Origin: a virus
Taxonomy: Duplodnaviria; Heunggongvirae; Uroviricota; Caudoviricetes
Virus record (IMG/VR): IMGVR_UViG_2531839432_000012
DNA length: 36,254 nt
Strand: one strand, 5' to 3'
Position 1 is the stretch's first letter. The number at the start of each line of letters is the position of its first letter. The translations under genes and the position numbers were made by a program. Shown one piece after another: positions 3,242 through 33,395 of the stretch. Below the pieces are notes generated by a model, which saw nothing but the letters and a program-made list of their open reading frames with translations, was not told the origin of the DNA and did no database searches.

Positions 3242-3553
3242 TTAGCCGGGCTGTGTGCCAGTCTTGCGGGGTTTTTGAGAAGGCGATGTGCTTTTTGGCC
3301 CATCAGGGGAGAGAGACGGACTGATCTGCCCAGCAGCCTCATTTGTTTCGTTACTCATCAACCACGTGGTGTATTTTTTAAAGTTCGGATGCATTGTGAT
3401 TTTCAGTAAAACCTCCGTCCCCACACCTCTAATACCAGTCTCATATTGCTTAACTGTACCAACCGCAATACCTATTGAATCCGCGAACTTTGCCTGGCTA
3501 AGTCCCTCAGATTCTCGAATTGCTTTTAGCTTCTTTGATATCTCTATTGACAT
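3242..3553 (-). CDS. Immunity repressor (P2 C-like), small HTH protein (start taken at MSIEISKKLKAIRESEGLSQ)
   Basis: HTH-like segment LSQAKFADSIGIAVGTVKQYETG; divergent from the early operon as in P2 int-C / cox. Confidence 0.7.
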   Translation of the reverse strand: MSIEISKKLKAIRESEGLSQAKFADSIGIAVGTVKQYETGIRGVGTEVLLKITMHPNFKKYTTWLMSNETNEAAGQISPSLSPDGPKSTSPSQKPRKTGTQPG

Positions 3554-3648
3554 GGTGTGCACCTGAATACTATATTGGTTATCAGTTGAGTACCACTTGA
3601 CGCCACAAAAAGCCACAAATAGCACCAGATTGAATAGGTTATCACATC
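3554..3648. promoter_or_regulatory. Divergent early control region (Pc/Pe-equivalent) with candidate operator direct repeats
   Basis: Seen in sequence: GCCACAAA at 3602..3609 and 3612..3619 (10-bp periodicity); GGTTATCA at 3577..3584 and 3637..3644; TTGACG -35-like hexamer at 3596..3601. Confidence 0.4.
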
Positions 3649-3927
3649 ATGGCAAAAGTCCTGAACACATACGAACAAGCGGATTTTGAGCGTTTGGCGG
3701 CGTTCTACCCATACCGTGATGAGCATGGGTTACCTGTGCTTGAAGAAAGCCTGGAAGATTACGCGAAACGCACGAATCAAAGCATTCTTGCGGTAAGAAG
3801 GCAGGCCGACAGATCAGTAATCCCCGTCACCCAAGAAGGAAGAAACACAAAACGCAAAGTAAACCTTTTCGCAATATTCCTGAAAACCATCAGGAGCGAA
3901 GAGAAATACGTGCAGATGACAAAATAA
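3649..3927 (+). CDS. First early-operon gene, Cox/Apl-like position (putative excisionase / early regulator)
   Basis: 92-aa ORF at the position of P2 cox; assignment by synteny only. Confidence 0.4.
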   Translation: MAKVLNTYEQADFERLAAFYPYRDEHGLPVLEESLEDYAKRTNQSILAVRRQADRSVIPVTQEGRNTKRKVNLFAIFLKTIRSEEKYVQMTK

Positions 3928-3941
3928 CGAGGTGTCATTTT

Positions 3942-4280
3942 ATGCTGAAGCAACGCCGTAATTTTCGTACCGGAACAGAACGCCACGCTAACCGTTTCAC
4001 TACCAGTGCATCACGCAGCAACATCCGCTACAGCCTGAGTGATACACACGCAACGCCGGATGGCTACCCAGTAAAACAAATCGGCGAGCACGCCTGGCTG
4101 ATTGAGAAAGCTGGAATCGTGATCCACAAATGCCCACGCAATCCGTTTACCGGAAACCGCATTTTTGCATTGAGCTGTGGCGACAATCAGTTCGGGCAGG
4201 ATTTCACATTATACGAAGCACTTCGCACGGTTGATCGTCTGCTTCGCGGGCAAAGTTTTATTAAACAGGCTGATTTATAA
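3942..4280 (+). CDS. Hypothetical early protein (112 aa)
   Basis: ORF in the early operon; no recognisable motif. Confidence 0.5.
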   Translation: MLKQRRNFRTGTERHANRFTTSASRSNIRYSLSDTHATPDGYPVKQIGEHAWLIEKAGIVIHKCPRNPFTGNRIFALSCGDNQFGQDFTLYEALRTVDRLLRGQSFIKQADL

Positions 4281-4290
4281 CAGGTGCTTT

Positions 4291-4578
4291 ATGACCAAAG
4301 ACCATGCACAAGGGGTATTTATCCGTTTTATTGATTTTCGCGGTGAACTGTTATTACGTGCATCCGCTATTGACGGAGTGACTCCGGCGGGTAAAAACGG
4401 AGCCGACGAAGCCACTTACGTTTATCTGAACGGCACGCGACTGCTTGTGGAACTTCCGTACCAGACCGTACGAGAAATCATTAGCGAAGCTGAAAAGGCA
4501 CGCCAGGTTAATGGCGATGAACCCTATATCGAAATTATTTGTATGGATTCAGAAGCTGAAATACAGAAAGCAGATTAA
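4291..4578 (+). CDS. Hypothetical early protein (95 aa; start at ATG 4291 inside the longer ORF 4177..4578)
   Basis: In-frame ATG after the upstream stop; same operon. Confidence 0.5.
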   Translation: MTKDHAQGVFIRFIDFRGELLLRASAIDGVTPAGKNGADEATYVYLNGTRLLVELPYQTVREIISEAEKARQVNGDEPYIEIICMDSEAEIQKAD

Positions 4579-4589
4579 AGGGCGTTGTG

Positions 4590-4832
4590 ATGGGTAAAGA
4601 ATATAAAACTCTCATTAACAAAGCACTTGAGCGTTTTTATTTTCGCTTAAGTGCATCAGGCGCTCATGCTGAACGTGCGGCCCGTGACTCATTGACCAGA
4701 GCAATCCGAAGTCTGTATGACGTGGCTTTTTACGCTGATGATCTGGATGCACTTAACGAACTTTCCGAGCTGATCTGTGCCGCAGAATGCGGGGAACATA
4801 TTGAACCGTATAAGCTGGGAAATATCGCATGA
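4590..4832 (+). CDS. Hypothetical early protein (80 aa)
   Basis: ORF with adjacent GTG/ATG start; same operon. Confidence 0.5.
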   Translation: MGKEYKTLINKALERFYFRLSASGAHAERAARDSLTRAIRSLYDVAFYADDLDALNELSELICAAECGEHIEPYKLGNIA

Positions 4833-4966
4833 GTATATTTATTTCATGGCTTGTTCTGATTATTTCGGTGGACTGCGCCATTGGGATTATGCGAATTATT
4901 AATTCAGTGAAAAAGATCGAGCGTTTTTCTCTGATGAATAACGATACAAATAAAACATCAAATTAA
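4829..4966 (+). CDS. Possible small hydrophobic membrane peptide (45 aa, MSIFISWLVLIISVDCAIGIMRIINSVKKIERFSLMNNDTNKTSN), start overlapping the upstream stop (ATGA)
   Basis: Hand-translated from the sequence; below the ORF-track size cutoff; one predicted TM helix followed by a polar tail; AT-rich. Confidence 0.3.
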   Translation: MSIFISWLVLIISVDCAIGIMRIINSVKKIERFSLMNNDTNKTSN

Positions 4967-5033
4967 ATAAGAAAACGTGAAAACCATCCGTATTAACGGA
5001 GGTATTCGCACACGTAAATAACGGAGATATAAA

Positions 5034-5450
5034 ATGAACGCAAAAGAAGAAGGCATTATCGACACATTAAAAAAAATATCAAAAGCGGAAGATGAAATGG
5101 CTAAAGATGCCGTGAAGCGTAGCCAACATATGGCAGCACTTCACGCACTGACCATTGCAAAAATCACCGCTGACGCAGCCAAAATTATTGAGGAACAGGG
5201 CAAAAAAATCGACACTCTTAAAACACAGTCAACAGTTGCAGCCATGAATCCGCCCAGCATTGGACGCCGCATTCACATTCTTGGTTCGGCAATAATGACG
5301 CAATACACCATTATTGCCGAACTGCACGGCAAATACCTGATAACGCCTTACCACACAAAAGAGTCAGAGCTTCTGACAAATCTCCGCCTGATAGAACTCT
5401 CTCAAGCTGTATTCATTGATGACGCGCAACGTGCCGTATTTAACGCATAG
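5034..5450 (+). CDS. Hypothetical protein (138 aa) preceded by an AT-rich ~200-bp spacer
   Basis: ORF with AGGAG-like RBS region (acggagatataaaATG). Confidence 0.55.
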   Translation: MNAKEEGIIDTLKKISKAEDEMAKDAVKRSQHMAALHALTIAKITADAAKIIEEQGKKIDTLKTQSTVAAMNPPSIGRRIHILGSAIMTQYTIIAELHGKYLITPYHTKESELLTNLRLIELSQAVFIDDAQRAVFNA

Positions 5451-5473
5451 GGTTACTGGACAAAGGGGGCGCA

Positions 5474-5677
5474 ATGGCAATTAAGCATTTTCCCGTCGTT
5501 CGCTTTACCTCCAGAGGGCGCGAATACGAGGTCGACGAACGCCTGATTACCACTATCGACAAACATCGTTCGGAAAAGGATGCACACCACATCTACCTCA
5601 CTGACGGCACTTATTTCTGCGCCACCAACGTGGCGCGGGTGAATCTTATCCGACAGGTACAGGAGCCACGCAGATGA
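5474..5677 (+). CDS. Hypothetical protein (67 aa)
   Basis: ORF with RBS GGGGG upstream; tight spacing with neighbours. Confidence 0.5.
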   Translation: MAIKHFPVVRFTSRGREYEVDERLITTIDKHRSEKDAHHIYLTDGTYFCATNVARVNLIRQVQEPRR

Positions 5678-23702: not shown

Positions 23703-24599
23703 ATGCCCGCCGTTGACCTTTCACAGTTACCGGAACCCGCCATCATCGCGGAGCCTGACTTTGAAGCAATTCTGGCTGACACAAAGGCCATGATGATTGC
23801 GGCTTATCCCGCCGAACAGCGTGAAGCCGTTTCCGCCGCGCTGGAGCTGGAATCGGAACCCCTTAACGTTATCGCTCAAACCATGTCGTTTCGTGAAATG
23901 CTGTTACGCCAGCGGGTTAACGAGGGGGCACGCGCCTGCATGTTAAGCCACAGCGCCGGGACAGACCTGGACAACCTCGCGGGCAATATGAACACAAAGC
24001 GCCTGGTTATCACTCCGGCAACGGATACCACCGACGCGGTGATGGAGAGCGACACCTCGCTGAGACTGCGGGCGCAGCGGGCGTACGACGGCCTGAGTGT
24101 TGCTGGCCCGTCAGGTGCATACGAGTATTTTGCCCGCAGCGCCAGCGGTCTGGTGCGTGATGCGCGGGCTATCAGTCCGTCTCCGGCAAATGTGACGGTT
24201 TCCATCCTGTCCACTGAAGGCGACGGCACAGCGACGGAGGCGTTGCTTAATACCGTTCGCGCCGTTCTGAATGCAGAGGATACCCGCCCGGTGGCCGACC
24301 GCCTGACCGTACAGAGCGCCAGAATCGTGACATGGCGGCTGAATGCAAAACTGTACTTTTACCCCGGCCCGGAATCCGAACCTATTCTGGCCGCGGCTGA
24401 ATCGTCGTTCAGGAAGTGGCTGGCTGAACAGGGGCTTATCGGTCAGGACGTGGCGTTGTCCGCCATTGCTGCCGCACTGCATGTGCACGGTGTGCAACGC
24501 GTGGAGATAATCGAACCCACACAGAATATGGCCATCAGCGACATACAGGCGGCGCGCTGTGAGTCATTCACCATCAGCGAAGGTGGACGCAATGAGTAA
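23703..24599 (+). CDS. J: Baseplate protein J
   Basis: 298-aa ORF in the P2 position; RBS GAGGGAG. Confidence 0.8.
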   Translation: MPAVDLSQLPEPAIIAEPDFEAILADTKAMMIAAYPAEQREAVSAALELESEPLNVIAQTMSFREMLLRQRVNEGARACMLSHSAGTDLDNLAGNMNTKRLVITPATDTTDAVMESDTSLRLRAQRAYDGLSVAGPSGAYEYFARSASGLVRDARAISPSPANVTVSILSTEGDGTATEALLNTVRAVLNAEDTRPVADRLTVQSARIVTWRLNAKLYFYPGPESEPILAAAESSFRKWLAEQGLIGQDVALSAIAAALHVHGVQRVEIIEPTQNMAISDIQAARCESFTISEGGRNE

Positions 24600-25200
24600 T
24601 TCGTTGTTACCACCATCAGCCAGCAATTTCATGCGTTGTGCCGAAGCCGTCGGAACACGCATTACAGACATTCCGGTAGACCTCAACACGCTGTGGTCGC
24701 CGGACACCTGCCCGGTGCATCTGCTGCCTTATCTCGCCTGGGCGTTTTCCGTTGACCGCTGGGATCGCAACTGGCCGGAAGAGACAAAGCGACAGGTGAT
24801 TCGTGATGCATGGCTGATACACCGACACAAAGGGACCATCAGCGCACTGCGAAGAGCCGTGGAGCCTCTCGGCTACCTGATTGAAGTAAAGGAGTGGTGG
24901 CAACTCAACGAGGAGCCAGGAACATTTCGCATTGTTGTCGGAGTACTTGATCAGGGCATCACCGATGAAATGTATCAGGAACTTGAGCGCCTTATTGCGG
25001 ATGCAAAACCAGTAAGTCGCCATCTGACGGGGCTGACGATCAGCCTGAGTGTGAACGGAAAGATTTTCGTTGGTACGGGATGCTATCACGGCGATGCCCT
25101 GACGGTTTATCCCTACACCCCGGAGTCCATTATTGTCGAAGGGGATTATTTTCCTGCCCCGGCCATTCATTTAATTGATAATCTGAGAGTAAACGCATGA
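24592..25200 (+). CDS. I: Baseplate / tail formation protein I
   Basis: ORF in the P2 position (start at ATG 24592). Confidence 0.7.
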   Translation: MSNSLLPPSASNFMRCAEAVGTRITDIPVDLNTLWSPDTCPVHLLPYLAWAFSVDRWDRNWPEETKRQVIRDAWLIHRHKGTISALRRAVEPLGYLIEVKEWWQLNEEPGTFRIVVGVLDQGITDEMYQELERLIADAKPVSRHLTGLTISLSVNGKIFVGTGCYHGDALTVYPYTPESIIVEGDYFPAPAIHLIDNLRVNA

Positions 25201-26927
25201 CAGTGAAATACTACGCCATTCTGACTAATCAGGGCGCGGCACGACTGGCTAACGCGACGATGCTCGGCAGTAAGCTGAATCTGACGCAAATGGCCGTTGG
25301 TGATGCAAATGGTGTGTTACCAACACCAGACCCTGCACAAACAAAACTGATTAACCAGAAACGCATCGCGCCGCTGAATCTTCTGAGTGTTGACCCGAAC
25401 AACCAGAGCCAGATTATTGCGGAGCAAATCATCCCTGAGAACGAGGGCGGATTCTGGATCCGTGAGATAGGTCTTTATGATGATGAAGGCGTACTCATTG
25501 CGGTGGCGAACTGCCCGGAAACGTACAAACCACAGTTACAGGAAGGCAGTGGTCGTACCCAGACCATCCGTATGATTCTGGTCGTCTCGAATACCGAAGC
25601 CATCACGCTGAAAATCGACCCGTCAGTGGTGCTTGCGACGCGCCAGTATGTAGATCAGCAAATAGAAGTTCATGAGCAATCGCGCCGTCATCCATCTGCT
25701 TCTTTGACAGAAAAGGGATTTGTACGTCTGTATAGCGGTGTGGAAAGCAATGATGAAACAGTCGCTGCAACGCCAAAAGCAGTGAAAATAGCGATGGATA
25801 ATGCCAGCGCCAGACTGGCAAAAGACCGCAATGGTTCTGATATTCCCAATCCGGCACTGTTTGTTCAGAATCTGGGATTGAAAACGACTGTTGATAAAGC
25901 AGCATCAGCGATTCAGCCAGGAGATTATGGAATTGGTCTGGCTTATCTGAAAACCATGGGAACCAAATCGCAATTTTTTGCTTACAGTACAGCTGTCGGC
26001 TATCCAGAAGTGCCAACACATGGTGCTGGTTTCCAGGCCTGTTACAACGACAATCGGCGTGCACAAATTTATGTCGCTAATGATGGCAAGATGTACTGTC
26101 GATTCAGCATGTTATCGAAAATTGCCGATGATGAAACACCGTGGAATCAGGTGTTCACCAGTGCACATTATCCAGAAGCATCAGTGAGTGTTAAAGGAAT
26201 GGTGCAACTGGGGAGCGATGTAAACAGCGTGTCAGAAAATGTTGCGGCGACATTGAAAGCGGTAAAAATTGCGATGGACAACGCCAGCGCGAGACTAGCA
26301 AAGGACCGCAATGGTGCTGATATTCCTGACCCGACTTTGTTTATTCAGAATCTGGGACTTAAACCGACAGTTGATAAGGCTGAAAGTGCTCTGCAACAGG
26401 GAGCATACGGAATCGGTAGCAAAAATAACTACGAAATGGGTGAGGTTTCACAGTTTCTTGCATATTCAGGTAATGCAGATGAAGTGCCATCGAATGGGGC
26501 AGGTTTTCAGGCTGCGTATAACAAGAACAGACGCGCGCAGATTTTCATCACCGGAGCAGGAGAAATGTATCACCGTTTCAGCGGCTCTGATACGGTTAAA
26601 GACAATACAACACTATGGCGTCGGGGTGTTTGTGAAGATGAATTTTCATTTGGCAGCAATTATCACCGAATAACTGGCGGTGTGCTGAAGCAGTTTTTTA
26701 ACAGTTATTTTTCCGGGGCAACTGGTGTGGTGAATAAAGAGTATCAGGTGAATTTTCCGACACCATTTGCCCGTCAGTGCTGGTACGTAATCCCCGTTTT
26801 CCGTTCGTCACACGGTGGGAGTGTTGAGGGGGTCGCCATTACAGCTATTACTGCAACTGGCTTTACTCTGAGCATCACCGGAGATAACGGTGGATGGAAT
26901 ATTGGGTTTATTGCGGAGGGGGTCTGA
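25197..26927 (+). CDS. H: Tail fiber protein H with an internal duplicated module and a lower-GC C-terminal region
   Basis: Conserved P2 H-like N-terminus (MAVGDANG, FWIREIGLYDDEGVLIAVANCPE, HEQSRRHPSASLT); duplicated AATPKAVKIAMDNASARLAKDRNG...QNLGLK segment. Confidence 0.8.
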   Translation: MTVKYYAILTNQGAARLANATMLGSKLNLTQMAVGDANGVLPTPDPAQTKLINQKRIAPLNLLSVDPNNQSQIIAEQIIPENEGGFWIREIGLYDDEGVLIAVANCPETYKPQLQEGSGRTQTIRMILVVSNTEAITLKIDPSVVLATRQYVDQQIEVHEQSRRHPSASLTEKGFVRLYSGVESNDETVAATPKAVKIAMDNASARLAKDRNGSDIPNPALFVQNLGLKTTVDKAASAIQPGDYGIGLAYLKTMGTKSQFFAYSTAVGYPEVPTHGAGFQACYNDNRRAQIYVANDGKMYCRFSMLSKIADDETPWNQVFTSAHYPEASVSVKGMVQLGSDVNSVSENVAATLKAVKIAMDNASARLAKDRNGADIPDPTLFIQNLGLKPTVDKAESALQQGAYGIGSKNNYEMGEVSQFLAYSGNADEVPSNGAGFQAAYNKNRRAQIFITGAGEMYHRFSGSDTVKDNTTLWRRGVCEDEFSFGSNYHRITGGVLKQFFNSYFSGATGVVNKEYQVNFPTPFARQCWYVIPVFRSSHGGSVEGVAITAITATGFTLSITGDNGGWNIGFIAEGV

Positions 26928-27361
26928 TGAGTTATTTTTACAGTCCATCAAGAAATGCATTTTATAACAGTGAACTGAAATCTGATTATTACGATGCTCT
27001 CGATGCGTGGCCGGATGACTGTATTGAGGTAAGTGATGCTGTCTATCAGGAGTTTTATCTTGGTTATCGGGAAGGGTACAAAATGGTTGCAGGCACTGAT
27101 AACCAGCCATCATGGGAAGAACGTCCACCATTGACCCATGAGGAACAGGTGGAACAGGCAGAAATGATGAAACAGATGCGCATTAATGAGGCTAACAACC
27201 TGATTAATGAAAAACAATGGCCATCAAAATTACAGCTTGGCAGGTTGAACGAAATGGAGACAACCAGATTTAATGCGATGCTGAATTATCTTGAGTTACT
27301 TGAAAATATTAATGTAAGTGATGCCCCGGATATAGTCTGGCCTTTATCACCAGAAGTCTGA
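26927..27361 (+). CDS. G: Tail fiber assembly protein (gpG/Tfa-like)
   Basis: Start overlaps the H stop (ATGA); position and size. Confidence 0.7.
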
Positions 27362-27365
27362 ATAC

Positions 27366-27385
27366 ATCCCCGCGTCTGCGGGGAT
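27366..27385 (+). terminator. Hairpin ATCCCCGC-gtct-GCGGGGAT after the tail fiber assembly gene
   Basis: Seen in sequence; modest U-tract. Confidence 0.4.
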
Positions 27386-27782
27386 TCCTGTATCCGCCGT
27401 TGTGCCATTTTTCATACAAACCACATAACGTGCATCCTGCTCGTATCAACCAGAACATAGGCAGCCCCCCTCTACTACCGGAGAGACTGCCTTATGGCTC
27501 AGGATTACCACCACGGGGGCGCGTTGTTGAAGTCAACGAAGGCACCCGATCCATTACCACGGTGAGCACCGCCATCGTGGGTATGGTCTGCACGGGCGAT
27601 GATGCCGATGTAAAAATGCCTCCTCTTACTGTTCACCAAATAAGCAGAACACAGAATTGCAACGTAACACTCTACAATGCGCAAAATACGGACTGGTTAT
27701 TGAAGATAAAATCAGCAACACGAAATCATCACGTGACTATTTAATCTTGCAATAACACGTAAGGTGAGCAAGGAAACATTAA

Positions 27783-27813
27783 AACCGCTAATCTGACCAT
27801 TAGCGGTTTTTGT
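27783..27813. terminator. Bidirectional terminator (ACCGCTAAT-ctgacc-ATTAGCGGT + TTTTGTGTT) just downstream of the minus-strand U gene
   Basis: Seen in sequence. Confidence 0.5.
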
Positions 27814-27819
27814 GTTAAA

Positions 27820-28314
27820 TCAGAACAGCCCTTTAACTGAACTGGCCGCGCTGTTAAGGGATGATGTCACCTTATCTTTGAAGCCGGACAGCATATCGCT
27901 GAACGATGAGGATTGCAGGCGCTCCCGCAAATCCTCATCACAGCGTTCAAGGGTCAGTGAAAATTCTATCTTTTTCGCCTTACCGTAGCGATCAAACTCG
28001 GAGCGGGTCGTATTCGTTCCGGTCAGGACATACATGCCGTAAATCTGCCCGACACCATCAATCAGAGGCCAGGGGCGTCCTGTATATGCCTGCGTGGTCA
28101 GCAACGAAAGCGACACTTCGCCACCTGTAATTTCAGGATAAAGCACACCAGAAAGAACGATGCGATCATCGCCTGCCCCGATATACTGCCAGCTTGCTGA
28201 ACGGTTAACGCGTTCATTTTTCACATGCCGCCAGCTTTTGTTTTGCTGTAACTGCTGATGCGGCAACGTGCGCAGCTCAAAAACAAACATGCCGTAGATC
28301 ATCATCATGGCCAT
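27820..28314 (-). CDS. U: Tail protein U
   Basis: 164-aa ORF following the tape measure gene on the minus strand; size as P2 U. Confidence 0.75.
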   Translation of the reverse strand: MAMMMIYGMFVFELRTLPHQQLQQNKSWRHVKNERVNRSASWQYIGAGDDRIVLSGVLYPEITGGEVSLSLLTTQAYTGRPWPLIDGVGQIYGMYVLTGTNTTRSEFDRYGKAKKIEFSLTLERCDEDLRERLQSSSFSDMLSGFKDKVTSSLNSAASSVKGLF

Positions 28315-28320
28315 GACTCC

Positions 28321-31164
28321 TCAATCTTTATCGTAAAAACTGCCACGTCCGGCACGGTCGCGTCGTTCCAATTCTGCCCTGACCATTTCACCGACCAGTT
28401 TCGCCAGTTCGCGGGGATTCTGTGTAACAACGTTATGCAGATGAACATGAATTTCACCGCCAAATCCGGAGGCAACAGGCTCCCGGTTACGGGAAGTTGC
28501 AGGAGCTGATGCCACTGGCGATCGTATGGCCTCCGCCACCGGGCGGGAGCTGGCCGCAACAACAGGGACCAGCGCCGGAGGCAGCGGAGCCGGAACCACG
28601 GGTGTGATATTAATTGCGGGGGCAGGCTTACTGACCTGCGCAATCTTCCTCCCCTGCCACTCCCCACGAACAGCAAGTGCGCGGGGCAGGTTCTTAAAGA
28701 CAATATCGCCGGGGCCAATGCGTTTTTTCGTCTCATCAACCAGCTTACCTGTGTTATCAGCAATTTTGCTGAGTCTGCGTAGCGTACCGGTATTGCTGTC
28801 TGTGAGCGGTTTGTTGTCTTTGGGCTTATCACCTCCGGTACCATTGCCATTTTCCACAGGCTTCGGCGGATTGATTTTCGCCAGGTCCCCCTGAAGTAAG
28901 GCAACCTTGTCCTGAAGAATGGCCGCACGCTGTGCGTCTTCGATTTTCTTGCGCGCCCTTTCCGCTTCATCCGGAAGGACGCCAAGTTTTTCAAGTATCC
29001 ACGCCAGCGTATCCAGTAGCATTTTTGCAGGTGTCAGAACAAGTTGTAACGCACCGCCAAGAACGTTACCGAATATCTCGCCAGCACTGGTACATTTATC
29101 CAGCGTTTCCTTGCTGGACTCCATCGGTGACAACAGCGATTTAAACCAGTTAAACACCTGGCTGATCCCGCTTCCGATTGCGTCAAAAACAGGACCAAAC
29201 CGTTCAAAGGTTTCGCGCAACGGGGTCAGCCTTTCCATAATCCCGCTGAACACCCCGGCAAAAAATGCCCTGATGGGATCCCAGTATTTCCAGATGAGAA
29301 CGGCAGCTCCGGCAAGCGCAGCCACGATAAGACCGACCGGACTGAACAACGCCCCGATAGCGCCCCCCAGTAACGAAACGGAACCCGTCACCATTCCCCA
29401 TAGTGCTGGCAGGAGTCTGACAGCATTCATTGAACCGGTCAGGAGGGAAAAGCCAAGACGCAGTTTTGCCAGCGGACCAGCAAGCACACCAATAGCCAGC
29501 GACAACGAGCCAACCGTTGCAGTCATTGCCAGCAACGCACCGCCTGCTATCAGTAGCTGGCGCGTCAGTGCCGGATGGGCCTGCGCCAGCGCCGTCACCC
29601 TTGATACCACCCGCGTGAGCCACTGCGTGACAGAACGCAGCGGACCGTCAATCAGATCTGCAATGCGGATGCGCAACCCTTCCCATGCACTGCCGAGTGA
29701 TTTCAGATCGCCGTCAAGGTTGTTGGCCATGACCTTTGCTGTGCGTTCAGCCTCACCGCGCGCGCCTTCAAGTTCTTTTCTCAGTTTAGGTAAGGAACCG
29801 TCACCCGCTGCATCAACGAGCGCCATAAACGATGTGAAAGCCTCTTCTCCGGCAATGTCCTTAAAGAACGATACCCGGTCAACTTCCCCGTATTTGCGGG
29901 TGGCTTTATAAAGGTCGGCCAGCACATCCTCCATCGGGCGCATTTTGCCGTTCGCGTCAGAGACTGCCACACCAAGCTCTTTCAGCGCCTCTGCTGCTGC
30001 CTTTGGCGGTGATGCCAGACGAGCCAGGCTGGCACGCATTGCCGTCCCGGCATCACTCCCTCTGATACCCATATTCGCCAGCACGCCCGCCATCGCTGCG
30101 GCCTGCTCCAGCGATATTCCCAGCTTACCCGCCACCGGACCTGCATATTTCATGGTTTCGCCCAGTGCGCGAAGGTCAGTGTTGGTACGGGTAAATGCTG
30201 CGGTGAGCGTGTCGCCAACCCGGTCCATCTGGTCAGCGGAGAGGCCGAACTGCGTCAGGATATTTGAGCCAATATCTGCCGTCTCGCCAAGGTCCATACC
30301 GCCAGCCGTTGCCATGCTCAGCACGCCCGGAAGCGCAGCCTGAATGGCCTGCGGAGTGAAGCCAGCCATTGCAAGAAATGCCTGCCCACTGGCGGCATCG
30401 CCTGCGGTGAACTGCGTTTCAGAGCCAAGTTTTAACGCCTGCTCACGCAGCGCCTTAAACTGCGGGCTGTTTTTGTCGATTCGCGTCAGTGCCTGAACGC
30501 GGGACATCTCTTTGCCGAACCCGATCGCAGGCTGCAAAAAACGCCCGGCAGCATAGCCGCCAGCCGCTGCCGCACCAATTGCCAGCGCACCACCTGTTTT
30601 CAGTTTTCCCGCGGTTTCCTGCACGCGCGAATACCGCTCACGCGCCCGCGTTACACGCGCAAGCGCCTGCCGTTCGCGTTCAAGCTGGTTGTTGTACTGT
30701 TCGGTGCGTCTGATGGCCTGCTGGATGGTGTTATCGCTGCCTGTCAGGGAAATGCCGTGGCGTTTCAGCTCTCCGCCAAGCTCCCGCATTTTCTGAATTT
30801 CCCGTGTGCGCGATTCATTCAGGCGTTCAAGCCGGGTGCTTAACTGCTGCATCAGCTTTTGTTGTTTTTCGCTGAGCACTGTACCCGTGCGTTGTAACTG
30901 ATTAAGGGCGTTAAGCTGGCGTCGCGCTTTCACGATACCCGCATCCGCTTTACTGACAGCGTCGCGGGCGCGCTCAAATGAACGCGCCTGACGCTCGAGA
31001 TTTTTGATCGCCCCCTGCGTTCGCTGGATGGAGTCACCAAACTGCCCCATCAGGCGGCGGGCGTTTTCGGCAGGGCGGGTCAGCCTGTCAACGGCGCTGA
31101 AAGCGACCCGGATATCAAGAGTCTTCATTGTCTGCATTCCCGCTGCGAAGTGCCGCCCGCTCAC
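28321..31164 (-). CDS. T: Tail tape measure protein (gpT-like); exact start uncertain (alternative ATGs at 31137 and 31128)
   Basis: 947-aa ORF with long coiled-coil and Gly/Ala-rich hydrophobic stretches; follows E/E'. Confidence 0.85.
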   Translation of the reverse strand: MSGRHFAAGMQTMKTLDIRVAFSAVDRLTRPAENARRLMGQFGDSIQRTQGAIKNLERQARSFERARDAVSKADAGIVKARRQLNALNQLQRTGTVLSEKQQKLMQQLSTRLERLNESRTREIQKMRELGGELKRHGISLTGSDNTIQQAIRRTEQYNNQLERERQALARVTRARERYSRVQETAGKLKTGGALAIGAAAAGGYAAGRFLQPAIGFGKEMSRVQALTRIDKNSPQFKALREQALKLGSETQFTAGDAASGQAFLAMAGFTPQAIQAALPGVLSMATAGGMDLGETADIGSNILTQFGLSADQMDRVGDTLTAAFTRTNTDLRALGETMKYAGPVAGKLGISLEQAAAMAGVLANMGIRGSDAGTAMRASLARLASPPKAAAEALKELGVAVSDANGKMRPMEDVLADLYKATRKYGEVDRVSFFKDIAGEEAFTSFMALVDAAGDGSLPKLRKELEGARGEAERTAKVMANNLDGDLKSLGSAWEGLRIRIADLIDGPLRSVTQWLTRVVSRVTALAQAHPALTRQLLIAGGALLAMTATVGSLSLAIGVLAGPLAKLRLGFSLLTGSMNAVRLLPALWGMVTGSVSLLGGAIGALFSPVGLIVAALAGAAVLIWKYWDPIRAFFAGVFSGIMERLTPLRETFERFGPVFDAIGSGISQVFNWFKSLLSPMESSKETLDKCTSAGEIFGNVLGGALQLVLTPAKMLLDTLAWILEKLGVLPDEAERARKKIEDAQRAAILQDKVALLQGDLAKINPPKPVENGNGTGGDKPKDNKPLTDSNTGTLRRLSKIADNTGKLVDETKKRIGPGDIVFKNLPRALAVRGEWQGRKIAQVSKPAPAINITPVVPAPLPPALVPVVAASSRPVAEAIRSPVASAPATSRNREPVASGFGGEIHVHLHNVVTQNPRELAKLVGEMVRAELERRDRAGRGSFYDKD

Positions 31165-31644
31165 GCCAGCTAACCACTTCGCCGGGCGTCATCATGAAGA
31201 TTTCGGCGGGCGACCAGTTAAAAATAACGGCAATATCTGCCACAAAGTCTTCTATGTGCTCAAAGCACACAACCGTGATCAGGCTTCCGTCGCCTGTTCG
31301 TTCTTCCCGCCAGAGTCCGCACCGCTCAAAAAATTTACGGCAACCACACATAACTGAATAAAGTCACGGGATGCCATTTTTTTGATCGTCACTTCATCCA
31401 GTCGCGGTGATGTCACGCGTGACAGCAGCGTAAACATGGATTCCGCTTTCAGATTCAGCACATCAGACAGCGACAAATCTCGCAGAGATCCAGCCTGCTC
31501 AATAGCCCCGGTGATCTCCACATACGTGATTTTTTCGCCGCCTCGCTCAATGGGTTGGGTAAGTTTTACGCCACGCTCACTGGTTTCTTTCACAGTGTCA
31601 GCAACTACCGTGTTTTCGGTATCGATGTTTTTCGTCTCTTTCAT
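31115..31644 (-). CDS. E+E' fusion chaperone produced by programmed -1 ribosomal frameshift at TTTTTTG (plus-strand coordinates 31327..31333)
   Basis: Slippery heptamer seen in the E reading frame (..AAU UUU UUG..); the -1 frame continues into the overlapping ORF 31115..31351, which overlaps the start of T, as in P2. Confidence 0.7.
31279..31644 (-). CDS. E: Tail assembly chaperone E
   Basis: 121-aa ORF between FII and T on the minus strand. Confidence 0.75.
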   Translation of the reverse strand: MKETKNIDTENTVVADTVKETSERGVKLTQPIERGGEKITYVEITGAIEQAGSLRDLSLSDVLNLKAESMFTLLSRVTSPRLDEVTIKKMASRDFIQLCVVAVNFLSGADSGGKNEQATEA

Positions 31645-31698
31645 CAGGAAACTCCTTTCAGTCAGAGGCGACGCACTGCGCCGCCTGCATATTACTTA

Positions 31699-32211
31699 TC
31701 AGCCAAGCCCAAGCGCGGAACGGATGCGATCGGGCACAATGTCCTTGCCGTCCTTCCGGTAAATGAAGTTCAGCAGGTCAATCTCCCACAACGGACGATC
31801 GTTAACACTCAGCTTGTAGTAGGTGTTTTTAATGGCGTAAGTGTGTGATGTGGCTTCGCCCTGTTTGGCTTCCCCCATATCAATTTCCGTCACACGTCCG
31901 CGCATTTCGACTTCATACAGGTCGCTTTCTGCATCGGTGTAGTATTCACCCGCAAAACGCAGCAGCGTGCCGTCAATCGTGCCGCCATACTTAAGGAACA
32001 GCTCACGAACTGCGCCCCCCATGACAAAGCTCGCATCAAGCGCGGAGTCGTCCAGACCGAGATCAATACTTACCGCCCCCATCATGCCACCACCCCGGTA
32101 GCTGTCGGTTTTGCGCGTCAGTTTGGGCAGAGTGACGGACGTCCCCTTACCCACTTCGTTTTCACCATCCACAAACAGCGTAAAAAAGCGAAGATGTTTT
32201 GGCACAGCCAT
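31699..32211 (-). CDS. FII: Tail tube protein FII
   Basis: 170-aa ORF directly downstream of the sheath gene. Confidence 0.85.
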   Translation of the reverse strand: MAVPKHLRFFTLFVDGENEVGKGTSVTLPKLTRKTDSYRGGGMMGAVSIDLGLDDSALDASFVMGGAVRELFLKYGGTIDGTLLRFAGEYYTDAESDLYEVEMRGRVTEIDMGEAKQGEATSHTYAIKNTYYKLSVNDRPLWEIDLLNFIYRKDGKDIVPDRIRSALGLG

Positions 32212-33395
32212 CAGGCACCTCCCAGCACCGCAAATGCGGGTTCAAAGTATTCATCAGTAAACGTCTGGTAAAGCTCCATGTCTTCCAGTGGCGGAACGGG
32301 CGTATATTTGTAGCGAATACGCACACGCCCCTGACGTAAATCCGTGGTGCTGTTATCCACCACGTCATACCAGCACTCCGCGCCAATCAGTTTCCCGGCA
32401 GTCACCAGTGAATCCAGTTTTGCCCTGATGGCACTGATAACATCCTTCACGTTCGCAGGCGTCAGTGGACTGTCGATGGTTTCAAACTGCGCTTCCGCAA
32501 TTGAATCAGCCAGCACCTGTGCGGTTCGGGTATACACCTCAAAAATGTAGGCGTTCGTTTCCGGTGTGCGGTTGCCCCAGAAGCGGAACCCGTTGCGACG
32601 AATAATGGTCGTGATTTCTTTGTTGTTGAGGCTGTTGGCATCGCTGTCTTCGGCCTGCAACGACCAGAACACATGCCTCGACATCCCCAGCACATTTTTA
32701 ACCGGAACGTTGGACAGCGATTTGTGCCAGCCCTGCTCATGGTCAATGTACGCACGAAGGCCGCACGCATAAGCAGGCGCGGGGAACGTTTCGTTTTCGC
32801 CACTTTTCGGGTTGTAGGCGATGAAGTCCGGCCATAAGAGCATCACTTCACGTTCGTTGAATTTCTGGCGGTAGGTAATCGCTTCAGCCATCGTGTTACA
32901 GCCGTGACATGAGGCATACACAAATGCGCGCAGTTTACCCGCAATCACGCACAGGGATTTTGTCACCGCCTCCGTGTCCAGCTCCGGCGCGGCCAGAATA
33001 CGCGGACGGTATCCGATGCTTTCATCCTGCTCTGCAACAAGCAGCGCATACATCCCCGTATAGCTGCCGTCATCCTCAGAACCACCGATAACCAGTTGAT
33101 CCTGCGTCTTTTCGTCTTCTTCTTTGTGTTCAGCCACACGAACGACGATCACCTTTGTGCTCACCTGGTCTGCGATGGCCTTAAGCGCACGATAAAGCGT
33201 CCCCGTTGTTCCGCATTTTCCCAGCACGTCATTGACGCGGGTCAGCAGTGTGGGCTTGTTCAGCTGGAACAGCTTCGCGTCCGCATCATCCGCCGTTGCC
33301 ACGATACCGATAACGCTGGAATCAACATCGTTAATCGCTGTTACCAGGTCGGTATTTTCCGTAACACGGGCACCATGAAAACGAGTTTCACTCAT
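32211..33395 (-). CDS. FI: Contractile tail sheath protein FI
   Basis: 394-aa ORF; size and position; RBS AAGGGG. Confidence 0.85.
   Translation of the reverse strand: MSETRFHGARVTENTDLVTAINDVDSSVIGIVATADDADAKLFQLNKPTLLTRVNDVLGKCGTTGTLYRALKAIADQVSTKVIVVRVAEHKEEDEKTQDQLVIGGSEDDGSYTGMYALLVAEQDESIGYRPRILAAPELDTEAVTKSLCVIAGKLRAFVYASCHGCNTMAEAITYRQKFNEREVMLLWPDFIAYNPKSGENETFPAPAYACGLRAYIDHEQGWHKSLSNVPVKNVLGMSRHVFWSLQAEDSDANSLNNKEITTIIRRNGFRFWGNRTPETNAYIFEVYTRTAQVLADSIAEAQFETIDSPLTPANVKDVISAIRAKLDSLVTAGKLIGAECWYDVVDNSTTDLRQGRVRIRYKYTPVPPLEDMELYQTFTDEYFEPAFAVLGGA

Follow-up and report, generated by a model that had tools for sequence, protein, structure and literature searches.

The window analyzed here, a 36,254-nucleotide stretch of DNA, is a P2-like (Peduoviridae) prophage with an intact tail fiber of the P2/186 type, and the distal part of this fiber contains two old, tandemly arranged modules. 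On balance, we favor an account in which a trimeric two-module fiber grew by accretion at a conserved core and the distal fiber block was imported from a 186-type prophage.

The tail fiber locus

Coordinates of all features are collected in Table 1. The late tail genes follow the order V-W-J-I-H-G, as read from the open reading frames, from Pfam for I and G, and from the annotation of TUM9757, a locus 99% identical to the window in which the gene I homolog is annotated ‘phage tail protein I’. In RefSeq relatives, gene I starts at the equivalent of 24592. Tail protein U is the first gene of a minus-strand tail block, U-T-E-FII-FI, a gene order typical of the P88/500465-2 backbone.

The fiber protein H shares with P2 gpH and 186 K the PF12571 domain, the Phage_fiber_2 repeats and the place after J and I. 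The PF12571 N-terminal tail-collar fiber domain covers residues 1-150 (E 8.2e-63; 211 bits, cut-off 23) and is followed by two stretches of PF03406 (Phage_fiber_2; E 1e-29), the best of them at residues 169-209. Judged by sequence, residues 1-150 are part of the backbone or of a shared conserved region and would anchor the fiber, presumably a functional trimer, to the baseplate. As in loci of the P2 gpG type, a Caudo_TAP chaperone gene (G; PF02413, E 7.6e-26, 91 bits, cut-off 22.1) lies directly 3' of H with overlapping stop and start codons; the ATG and TGA share one base (TGATG at 26925-26929), and another ATG in the same frame farther 5', at 26894, is probably unused. Identical or near-identical 576-residue proteins are present in many E. 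coli contigs; none of the 50,697 records of the phage collection covers 80% of H.

Table 1. Features of the tail fiber locus (positions in the window)
Feature	Position	Strand	Basis or remark
Baseplate/tail protein I (P2 gpI homolog), 5' of fiber gene	24559..25200	+	PF09684 Tail_P2_I, E 4e-53
Tail fiber gene, P2 H / 186 K type, 576 aa, intact	25197..26927	+	ORF; PF12571 and two PF03406
N-terminal baseplate-attachment domain, aa 1-150	25197..25646	+	PF12571
Module 1, aa 166-316	25692..26144	+	Self-alignment, Pfam
Segment A1, aa 166-240			Phage_fiber_2 repeat and Mu-S-like stretch; QNLGL at 25866-25880
Conserved DNA core, module 1	25776..25900	+	Encodes AATPKAVKIAMDNASARLAKDRNG.DIP..LF.QNLGLK
Domain B1, aa 241-318	25917-26150		
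Module 2, aa 326-474	26172..26618	+	Self-alignment, Pfam
Segment A2, aa 326-400			QNLGL at 26346-26360
Conserved DNA core, module 2	26256..26380	+	Partner of 25776-25900
Domain B2, aa 401-476	26397-26624		AF2 model, pLDDT 83
C-terminal tip, aa 477-576, presumed receptor-binding domain	26625..26924	+	Weak PF21882
Tail fiber assembly chaperone G (P2 G / Tfa), 144 aa	26927..27361	+	PF02413, phrog_188
Dead 5' fragment of 186-type tail sheath gene, FI/J codons 1-45, frameshift near 27518	27494..27627	+	tblastn
Serine DNA invertase remnant, aa 8-45 only	27630..27743	+	tblastn
Terminator-like hairpin between invertase remnant and convergent gene U	27781..27810		
Tail protein U	27820..28314	-	PF06995, E 1.5e-38

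An old repeat under purifying selection

Self-alignment of H bears out the internal repeat that the first-pass annotation had described at both protein and DNA level. The two copies, whose limits enclose the intervals first proposed (25760-26100 and 26240-26590) and which hold all of the motifs quoted for them, are identical at 94 of 151 positions (62%; 2 gap positions; BLASTP E = 5e-61). At the DNA level, 25690-25937 and 26170-26417 are 70% identical in an ungapped alignment with a spacing of 480 nt, and the two conserved cores form the best local stretch, with 83% identity over 125 nt (E = 1e-33). Past the midpoint of the module, 15-codon windows show a nucleotide identity of 0.44-0.64, and the DNA likeness of the copies is confined to the core. 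The 150-residue repeat is not universal among P2-type H proteins, several of which have segment A only.

Since synonymous sites between the copies are saturated (pS = 0.72; dN = 0.35), the repeat is old and not recent. Of the domain duplication suggested earlier, the tandem repetition of a module of about 150 residues stands; a recent event is contradicted by this pS value and by the placement of domain B2 apart from B1 (see below). Compared with 13 other alleles, module 1, module 2 and the tip have pN/pS values of 0.05-0.14, and on this reading of the sequences the modules are old paralogs under purifying selection. A recent tandem duplication, or an assembly artifact of the repeated region, would account for nothing beyond the existence of the repeat; we regard it as extremely improbable, because the copies differ at 38% of residues, their synonymous sites are saturated, and the 576-residue architecture recurs in independent complete genomes, several of them deposited as whole chromosomes, and in 16 IMG/VR contigs. 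Both module copies are present wherever this distal fiber was found among E. coli complete genomes (48/48) and IMG/VR prophages (16/16).

Rod segments and a small beta domain

Each of the two tandem modules of the shaft consists of a segment A, presumably rod-forming, and a 78-residue domain B, predicted to be all-beta. In both modules, segment A matches residues 111-190 of Mu S (PDB 5yvq and 8ju3; E 1e-23 to 3e-24). It is made up of a Phage_fiber_2 repeat and a stretch common to Mu S, P2 H and 186 K; the closing QNLGL motif lines up with the place where the invertase of relatives makes its crossover. Residues 212-286 of 186 K are 49-68% identical to segment A of the window, and the feature labeled ‘Mu-like inversion crossover site’ in 186 K has its homolog in the module 1 core. 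Segment A is also all that P2-type H, 186 K and the H protein of Yersinia phage MHG75 have in common with the modules and tip; P88 H shares three copies of the 41-residue Phage_fiber_2 repeat and nothing else, and 500465-2 H matches neither module. All five fibers are without domain B and without the tip of the window. BLAST alignments do run past segment A, to residue 349 in 186 K and to residue 320 in P2-type H, but these extensions are gapped and of low identity and the B HMM misses both proteins, so that a shared B domain was rejected. Mu S and its Tfa resemble the locus in segment A and in a chaperone with a variable N-domain and an exchangeable C-domain (PDB 5yvq), whereas the N-terminal domain, B domains and tip of the window are unrelated to Mu S by sequence.

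No Pfam family was found for domain B, which occurs in one or two copies in fibers with unrelated tips (Gp53-like_C, Collar and Peptidase_S74). A search of NCBIfam found nothing, and comparison of the B profile with PDB sequences yielded chance matches only, as did that of the tip. The AF2 model of B2 is a four-stranded beta domain. Its best PDB matches by TM score are the R1 and R2 pyocin fibers (6cl5 and 6cl6; TMq 0.55 and 0.52; E about 3), and among its six top matches in the viral library four are named, all of them tail fiber or tail proteins (best E 0.055); no Foldseek match in the PDB or the viral library reached E <= 0.001. Profile-profile comparison did not identify B as a knob of the P2/pyocin type (hhalign probability 1%), and a single-sequence AF2 model of B2 plus tip was unusable (pLDDT 36). 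Domain B is probably a trimeric knob.

The R1 and R2 pyocin fibers offer an anatomical parallel: rods and tandem Knob1 and Knob2 domains are followed by a beta-sandwich tip, and the chaperone has a gene of its own (Buth et al. 2018, PMC6116203). Like the fiber studied here, they belong to contractile tails and carry two tandem small beta domains, which have been ascribed to duplication. They differ in that their structural match to B2 is not significant and the profile comparison is negative, and in that the repeated unit of the window is larger (rod plus knob, 150-160 residues) and its copies are 62% rather than 20% identical.

How the two modules may have come together

We propose that two fiber genes that had already diverged recombined out of register within their conserved A core and that this placed the modules in tandem; a fresh duplication would then not be the source of the arrangement. 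Domain B2 is 54-63% identical to the B domains of unrelated fibers and 51% identical to B1. In the B-domain tree, B2 pairs with the only B domain of a Citrobacter-type fiber (79% bootstrap), and B1 falls outside this pair. Each of the other B domains in the comparison is more distant from B1 than from B2.

The main alternative is that one A+B module was duplicated in tandem within the gene long ago and that the copies have since diverged where they stood, B1 at the higher rate; fibers with one module, such as P0122 and that of the Citrobacter type, would in this case have lost a copy later by recombination between the cores. Since the deep nodes of the B-domain tree are weak (10-52% bootstrap), this stays a rival to which we give a real but lesser likelihood. 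In its favor, the copies are adjacent, collinear and laid out alike throughout, the pyocin knobs are ascribed to gene duplication and share only 20% identity (PMC6116203), another fiber (P0256) likewise has two tandem B domains, and the distance of B1 from all other compared B domains could be a rate effect. What tells against it, besides the closeness of B2 to unrelated fibers and its pairing with the Citrobacter-type domain, is that module 1 with the head of module 2 is found on an unrelated distal part, and that an invertible cassette carries B2 plus tip but no module 1.

These combinations suggest that the conserved A core is a recurrent splice point of this H fiber family. In P0276, the N-terminal domain, module 1 and the head of module 2 are joined at AATLKAVK to the unrelated distal part. 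P0122, a one-module form of 416 residues, switches from module 1-like to module 2-like sequence inside the core, between NGS and DIPD and upstream of the QNLGL codons. In the related prophage L025, B, tip and Tfa lie in an invertible segment with 26-nt inverted repeats at the QNLHLG codons; the cassette comprises B, the tip and the N-domain of the chaperone, and adjoins an intact invertase. Its start, at the QNLGL crossover-site motif, corresponds to the module 2 core of the window, and the deeper cassette includes B2 and not the tip alone. Given this invertible cassette, exchange of tip and chaperone, as suggested in the first-pass annotation, holds on a deeper timescale.

The fiber switches inverted by Gin/Cin/Min-type invertases (Mu, P1, p15B, P88-like) occupy this exact place in relatives of the backbone, among them P88 and 500465-2, where the invertase and the fiber switch are intact, and the QNLGL motif of both modules is the protein-level homolog of their crossover site. 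The window differs from them in having no intact invertase, inverted repeats or alternative fiber end: codons 8-45 are all that was found of a serine invertase next to the fiber genes, no inverted repeats were found within 25197-27361, and the ORFs of the window include no second fiber end or second Tfa. Its two QNLGL motif copies are direct repeats, with only about half of 26 positions in agreement with the functional site of L025. Deletion by an invertase was rejected as the origin of the one-module form, given the half-matching motif DNA, the lack of an intact invertase and the position of the P0122 switch upstream of QNLGL.

A probable imported block with its left edge in the N-terminal domain

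A mosaic boundary lies at about residue 150, the point at which base composition, synonymous divergence and identity to the backbone all change abruptly. GC3 drops from 0.587 to 0.369 at residues 150-165 or so, and pS against the 13 other alleles is 0.60 in the N-terminal domain, compared with 0.053 in module 1, 0.047 in module 2 and 0.037 in the tip. Identity to phage 500465-2 is 98% up to 25655, megablast matches to phages end at nucleotides 443-459 of H, and likeness to the backbone resumes at 27771. Greater AT-richness of the C-terminal tip and chaperone gene than of the N-terminal part, as noted at first, is confirmed by GC contents of 0.479 (tip) and 0.407 (G) against 0.522; the modules are nevertheless more AT-rich than the tip, at 0.452 for module 1 and 0.469 for module 2, and the drop in composition is therefore placed at residue 150-165 and not at the last 120 residues.

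On the right-hand side, donor-type identity runs to 27628. The sheath fragment is identical to FI of VTB96777v at residues 1-8 and 94% identical at residues 10-45 (tblastn), and the TUM9757 annotation lists it as a partial ‘phage tail protein’ with a frameshift. It is fused directly to the invertase remnant, which is 53% identical to the 500465-2 invertase (E 5e-9, tblastn), and this fusion is the right-hand scar of the replacement. The same distal fiber was found in three P2-like backbone types. We suggest that the distal fiber, G, the intergenic region and 45 sheath codons arrived as one block from a 186-type prophage, with the left edge inside the N-terminal domain and a backbone of the Gemsvirus/Xuanwuvirus type as recipient. 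The incoming block would have replaced an invertible two-fiber host-range switch and destroyed its invertase, and the phage would therefore be locked into one host specificity. That the fiber sets the host range was shown earlier for P88 (PMC5285337).

The earlier proposal of an exchanged tip and chaperone thus holds in that the receptor-binding end and its chaperone are horizontally mobile; no junction precedes the last 120 or so residues, and the block exchanged here extends instead from inside the N-terminal domain through G to the end of the sheath fragment at 27627. A duplication in this phage with a separate swap of only the last 120 or so residues and the chaperone gene would agree with the AT-richness of tip and G relative to the N-terminal domain, with the finding of the tip only in this H fiber family and the Citrobacter-type relative, and with the co-variation of Tfa N-domains with tips. 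It is nonetheless very unlikely and contradicted for this lineage, as module 2 passes into the tip without a break in GC or pS, the breakpoints lie at about 25655 and 27628, both modules are present in all 16 close IMG/VR relatives, and the boundary of the L025 cassette is upstream of B and not of the tip. Moreover, a probe of tip plus G and a probe of distal H each matched 48 of 5,426 E. coli complete genomes with at least 80% cover, and the tip was therefore not seen on another shaft in those genomes. Two apparent variants proved not to be such: the partial match in NS-NP030 is an ISEc8 insertion, and P0123, a candidate fiber with a different tip, is a +1 frameshifted version of this fiber gene, its tail equaling the window ORF 26311..26673.

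Tip and chaperone

The tip of about 100 residues, presumably beta-structured, would bind the host surface. It resembles Gp53-like_C (PF21882) weakly, at residues 508-570, with 23.0 bits and E 1.1e-4, below the Pfam cut-off of 24.9; the Citrobacter-type homolog scores 24.8 bits, and two other B-containing fibers pass clearly (P0137, 51 bits; P0268, 54 bits). None of the phage records matches the entire tip; one weak alignment, to Enterobacter phage KKP_3711 (32% identity), extends to query residue 123, some 47 residues past the start of the tip. A word-indexed homolog search returned four matches with the tip, all fragments, and one with the B-domain alignment, and two scans of GTDB species representatives with B2 plus tip returned nothing.

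The variable N-domain of Tfa (G) would bind the tip and start folding of the trimer from the C-terminus. Relative to L025, B plus tip is 75% identical, the N part of Tfa 67% (42/63) and the C part 28% (22/79). This split agrees with the Tfa model in which the N-domain varies and binds the fiber and the C-domain can be exchanged (North et al. 2019, summarized in PMC9608196). In some E. coli alleles, divergence is limited to the final 67 nt of G.

Discussion

Duplication of fiber domains and exchange of cassettes are textbook phenomena. Tail fibers set the host range of phages and tailocins, and modular joints serve their re-targeting. The locus described here is a well-documented instance of such shuffling of host-recognition parts and leaves current understanding unchanged. 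It documents a single cassette in three P2-like backbones, an invertible host-range switch that appears to have been overwritten by a fixed fiber, and a 78-residue fiber domain that lacks a Pfam family and a detectable sequence relative in the PDB.

More speculatively, and with little probability in our estimate, the two direct cores might constitute a built-in length switch, or B might represent an uncatalogued family of receptor-binding knobs. RecA-type recombination between the cores, which are 83% identical and lie 480 nt apart as direct repeats, would interconvert the two-knob fiber of 576 residues and a one-knob fiber of 416 residues, the structure seen in P0122. Such an event would alter the reach of the fiber or remove a second sugar-binding knob, providing a slow host-range toggle for a phage without an invertase switch. 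If B were a receptor-binding knob, each fiber could have up to three binding sites.

For re-targeting, usable joints are mapped in this locus where the N-terminal domain ends, within the AATxKAVK...QNLGL core and midway through Tfa.

The fibre gene and its internal repeat

The tail fibre gene H is an intact reading frame for 576 residues, preceded by P2 gpI and followed by a Caudo_TAP chaperone gene (G), whose ATG overlaps the TGA of H, and then by gpU (Pfam assignments). The fibre shares the domain and gene-order features of P2 H/G and 186 K, and its tip resembles Gp53-like_C at 23.0 bits, below the Pfam cut-off of 24.9. H and G constitute, with high confidence, a functional tail fibre/chaperone pair; the H protein is already present, generically named, in many E. 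coli assemblies. The window coincides with the whole of IMG/VR contig IMGVR_UViG_2531839439_000018. Across 80-88% of the structural region, its backbone matches Xuanwuvirus/Gemsvirus-type phages, among them P88 and 500465-2, at 96-98%. The U, tape measure, E, tube and sheath genes (27820-33395) lie on the minus strand, opposite to the baseplate and fibre genes; a local inversion of this U-T-E-FII-FI block was rejected, as the opposite strand is the usual layout in P88/500465-2-type phages.

Features of the fibre region in the window and of the invertible fibre segment in the related locus L025
Feature	Position	Strand	Remarks
Tail fibre gene H	window 25197-26927	+	
Tail-collar fibre N-terminal domain, PF12571	H aa 1-150		Pfam, E 8e-63
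Phage_fiber_2 repeats, two	H, one heading each module		Pfam
Module 1 (A1 + B1)	H aa 166-316		
Module 2 (A2 + B2)	H aa 326-474		
Tip	H aa 477-576		
Chaperone gene G	window 26927-27361		
186-type sheath-gene 5' fragment and serine invertase remnant	window 27494-27743		directly fused; recombination scar
Invertase, intact	L025 3318-3914	-	adjoins 1.6-kb segment between inverted repeats
Inverted repeats, 26 nt	L025 3951-3976 and 5528-5553		92% complementary; at codons FLQNLHLGE

The first-pass annotation had described a repeat in H at both the protein and DNA level, and its coordinates and motifs proved correct. Comparison of the two halves gives a single alignment of the two modules (94/151 residues identical, E = 5e-61). 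The DNA copies are in register at a spacing of 480 nt and align ungapped over 248 nt at 70% identity; a 125-nt core (25776-25900 versus 26256-26380) is 83% identical (E 1e-33), beyond which nucleotide identity falls to 0.44-0.64 in 15-codon windows. The other P2-type fibres compared lack the full repeat: segment A alone is common to a P2-type H, 186 K and the H of Yersinia phage MHG75, P88 H has only a 41-residue repeat in three copies, and 500465-2 H matches neither module. The element that the family has in common is the short Phage_fiber_2 repeat rather than the unit of 150 residues. Conversely, the double module is fixed in the window's own fibre family: the distal fibre is full length in 48 of the 48 complete E. 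coli genomes that have it (5,426 screened), and all 16 close IMG/VR relatives possess two B domains.

Segments A and B

Segment A (about 75-80 residues) consists of the Phage_fiber_2 repeat followed by AMDNASARLAKDRNG.DIP..LF.QNLGLK.TVDKA, and matches residues 111-190 of the Mu fibre S (PDB 5yvq, 8ju3; E about 1e-23). The 186 K annotation places a 'Mu-like inversion crossover site' on the DNA for FVQNIGLKP, and homologous codons are present in both modules. Two further proteins single out the A core as a splice point. P0276 keeps module 1 and the start of module 2, then switches at AATLKAVK to an unrelated distal part rich in glycine, and the single module of P0122 (416 aa) resembles module 1 as far as NGS and module 2 from DIPD onwards.

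Segment B spans 78 residues (G.G...SQF..Y...EVP.NGAGFQ..Y...RRAQI....G..Y.RFS......TPW) and has no sequence match in Pfam, NCBIfam or PDB. Of the 150 cluster representatives of highest similarity, its HMM matches only about a dozen; the N-termini and tips of these fibres are unrelated (Gp53-like_C, Collar, Peptidase_S74), and one of them bears B twice in tandem. Among 50,697 phage records only about seven phages have it, none P2-like. AlphaFold2, from a 9-sequence alignment, predicts a four-strand beta domain (pLDDT 83, pTM 0.70). Foldseek returned no significant match to this model; the highest PDB TM-scores were to the R1 and R2 pyocin fibres, and the top six viral matches had probabilities of 0.93-1.0, all four named ones being tail fibre or tail proteins. 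Profile comparison of B with P2/pyocin-type knobs was negative. We infer that B is a knob-like trimeric shaft domain, with the knobs on the fibre axis, and that the tip, and possibly the knobs too, would bind a surface saccharide. R-pyocin fibres, with their duplicated tandem knobs, would be a working parallel, and in these a larger share in specificity has been proposed for Knob2 than for the C-terminal domain (PMC6116203). Domain duplication is an established route of fibre evolution, as is horizontal transfer of fibre ends (PMC6116203; PMC5285337). The repeat is a real feature of ordinary biology; our literature searches brought up no description of domain B or of the double module of H, a narrow gap.

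The two modules have diverged to saturation at synonymous sites (pS = 0.72, dN = 0.35), while the core alone gives a dN of 0.08 and a dS of about 1.0. B2 shares 51% identity with B1 and 54-63% with the B domains of other fibres, and the B tree, weak at its deeper nodes, pairs it with the only B of a Citrobacter-type fibre (79% bootstrap), leaving B1 outside. Across alleles of the window's fibre, the two modules and the tip all have pN/pS values of 0.05-0.14. It follows that neither copy is young or defunct, and we regard the repeat with high confidence as an old paralogy under selection. Of the domain duplication suggested earlier, the repeated module stands, but a recent event is excluded. 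With moderate confidence, we derive the tandem from two fibre genes that had already diverged and recombined out of register within the conserved core; duplication within the gene followed by divergence is a less probable route.

A mosaic joint and an imported block

The C-terminal part of H and G had been noted as AT-richer than the N-terminal part. This holds for tip and G, but the drop occurs already at about residue 150-165 (GC/GC3: N-terminal domain 0.522/0.587, module 1 0.452/0.369, module 2 0.469/0.413, tip 0.479/0.446, G 0.407/0.379). Backbone identity and synonymous divergence agree with composition on this break. Identity to 500465-2 is 98% as far as 25655 and returns only at 27771, and against 13 other alleles the N-terminal domain shows a synonymous divergence of 0.60, every distal part one of 0.04-0.05; none of the three measures breaks ahead of the tip. 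Megablast against all phages ends at H nt 443-459.

On the right, identity to 186-type prophages (e.g. that of strain VTB96777v) extends to 27628, the donor-like stretch taking in G, the intergenic spacer and sheath-gene codons 1-45, frameshifted in the window. At 27628/27630 the sheath fragment is fused to invertase codons 8-45 (53% identity to the invertase of 500465-2, E 5e-9), and in the same place P88 and 500465-2 carry an additional, inverted fibre end with another chaperone gene and an invertase that is intact. The fusion and these intact switches indicate that a fixed 186-type fibre-chaperone block overwrote the backbone's invertible switch; with high confidence, 25656-27628 was acquired in one piece and took the place of that switch. 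Gin/Cin-type invertible fibre segments occur in relatives; the window, tested for one, does not have it.

At least three types of backbone carry the window's fibre, each with its own right-hand joint: a 186-like type in which a sheath gene of 98% identity follows, that of the IMG/VR loci L016 and L021 (sheath 68% identical; similarity to the window stops at 27342, inside G), and the window itself. The 576-aa fibre of L016 and L021 includes the window's MTVKYY N-terminal allele.

The stretch 27362-27628 is GC-rich (0.547), and its part between G and the sheath fragment (27362-27493) starts with a GC hairpin at about 27368-27383. Phage 186 has its terminator t45 at this position, and the late promoter pJ, activated by B, comes next. 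The putative pJ-type promoter, if intact, would now read into the dead sheath fragment towards convergent U.

An invertible cassette in a relative

L025 (IMGVR_UViG_2627854164_000004) has an intact invertible fibre segment (3318-5553). Half of its 1.6-kb segment comprises B and tip, together 75% identical to the window's, and a chaperone, at present in the off orientation; protein P0279 is the flipped form. The L025 and window chaperones are 67% identical over the N-terminal 63 residues and 28% over the remainder. This pattern fits the reported Tfa design, in which tip binding falls to a variable N-domain and assembly is driven by a conserved C-domain (North et al. 2019, as summarised in PMC9608196). 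The earlier proposal of an exchangeable tip and chaperone is therefore right in spirit, given this cassette together with P0276 and P0122, but the natural unit starts at the crossover-site motif and includes B2.

The fibres of L025 (5183-6394, minus strand) and P0279 carry two 'NG.D.P....QNL.LG' motifs about 45 residues apart, only the second of which coincides with the crossover site; this suggests that small duplications around the site recur in this family. P0123, considered as a variant tip, was rejected: its aberrant C-terminus is a 120-aa ORF in an alternative frame of H (window 26311-26673, plus strand), so that P0123 is a frameshifted copy or a sequencing error. In L008 (E. coli NS-NP030, NZ_AP024126.1 1601326-1608397), ISEc8 of the IS66 family lies within module 1 of the fibre gene, and the distal ORF past it is truncated yet annotated.
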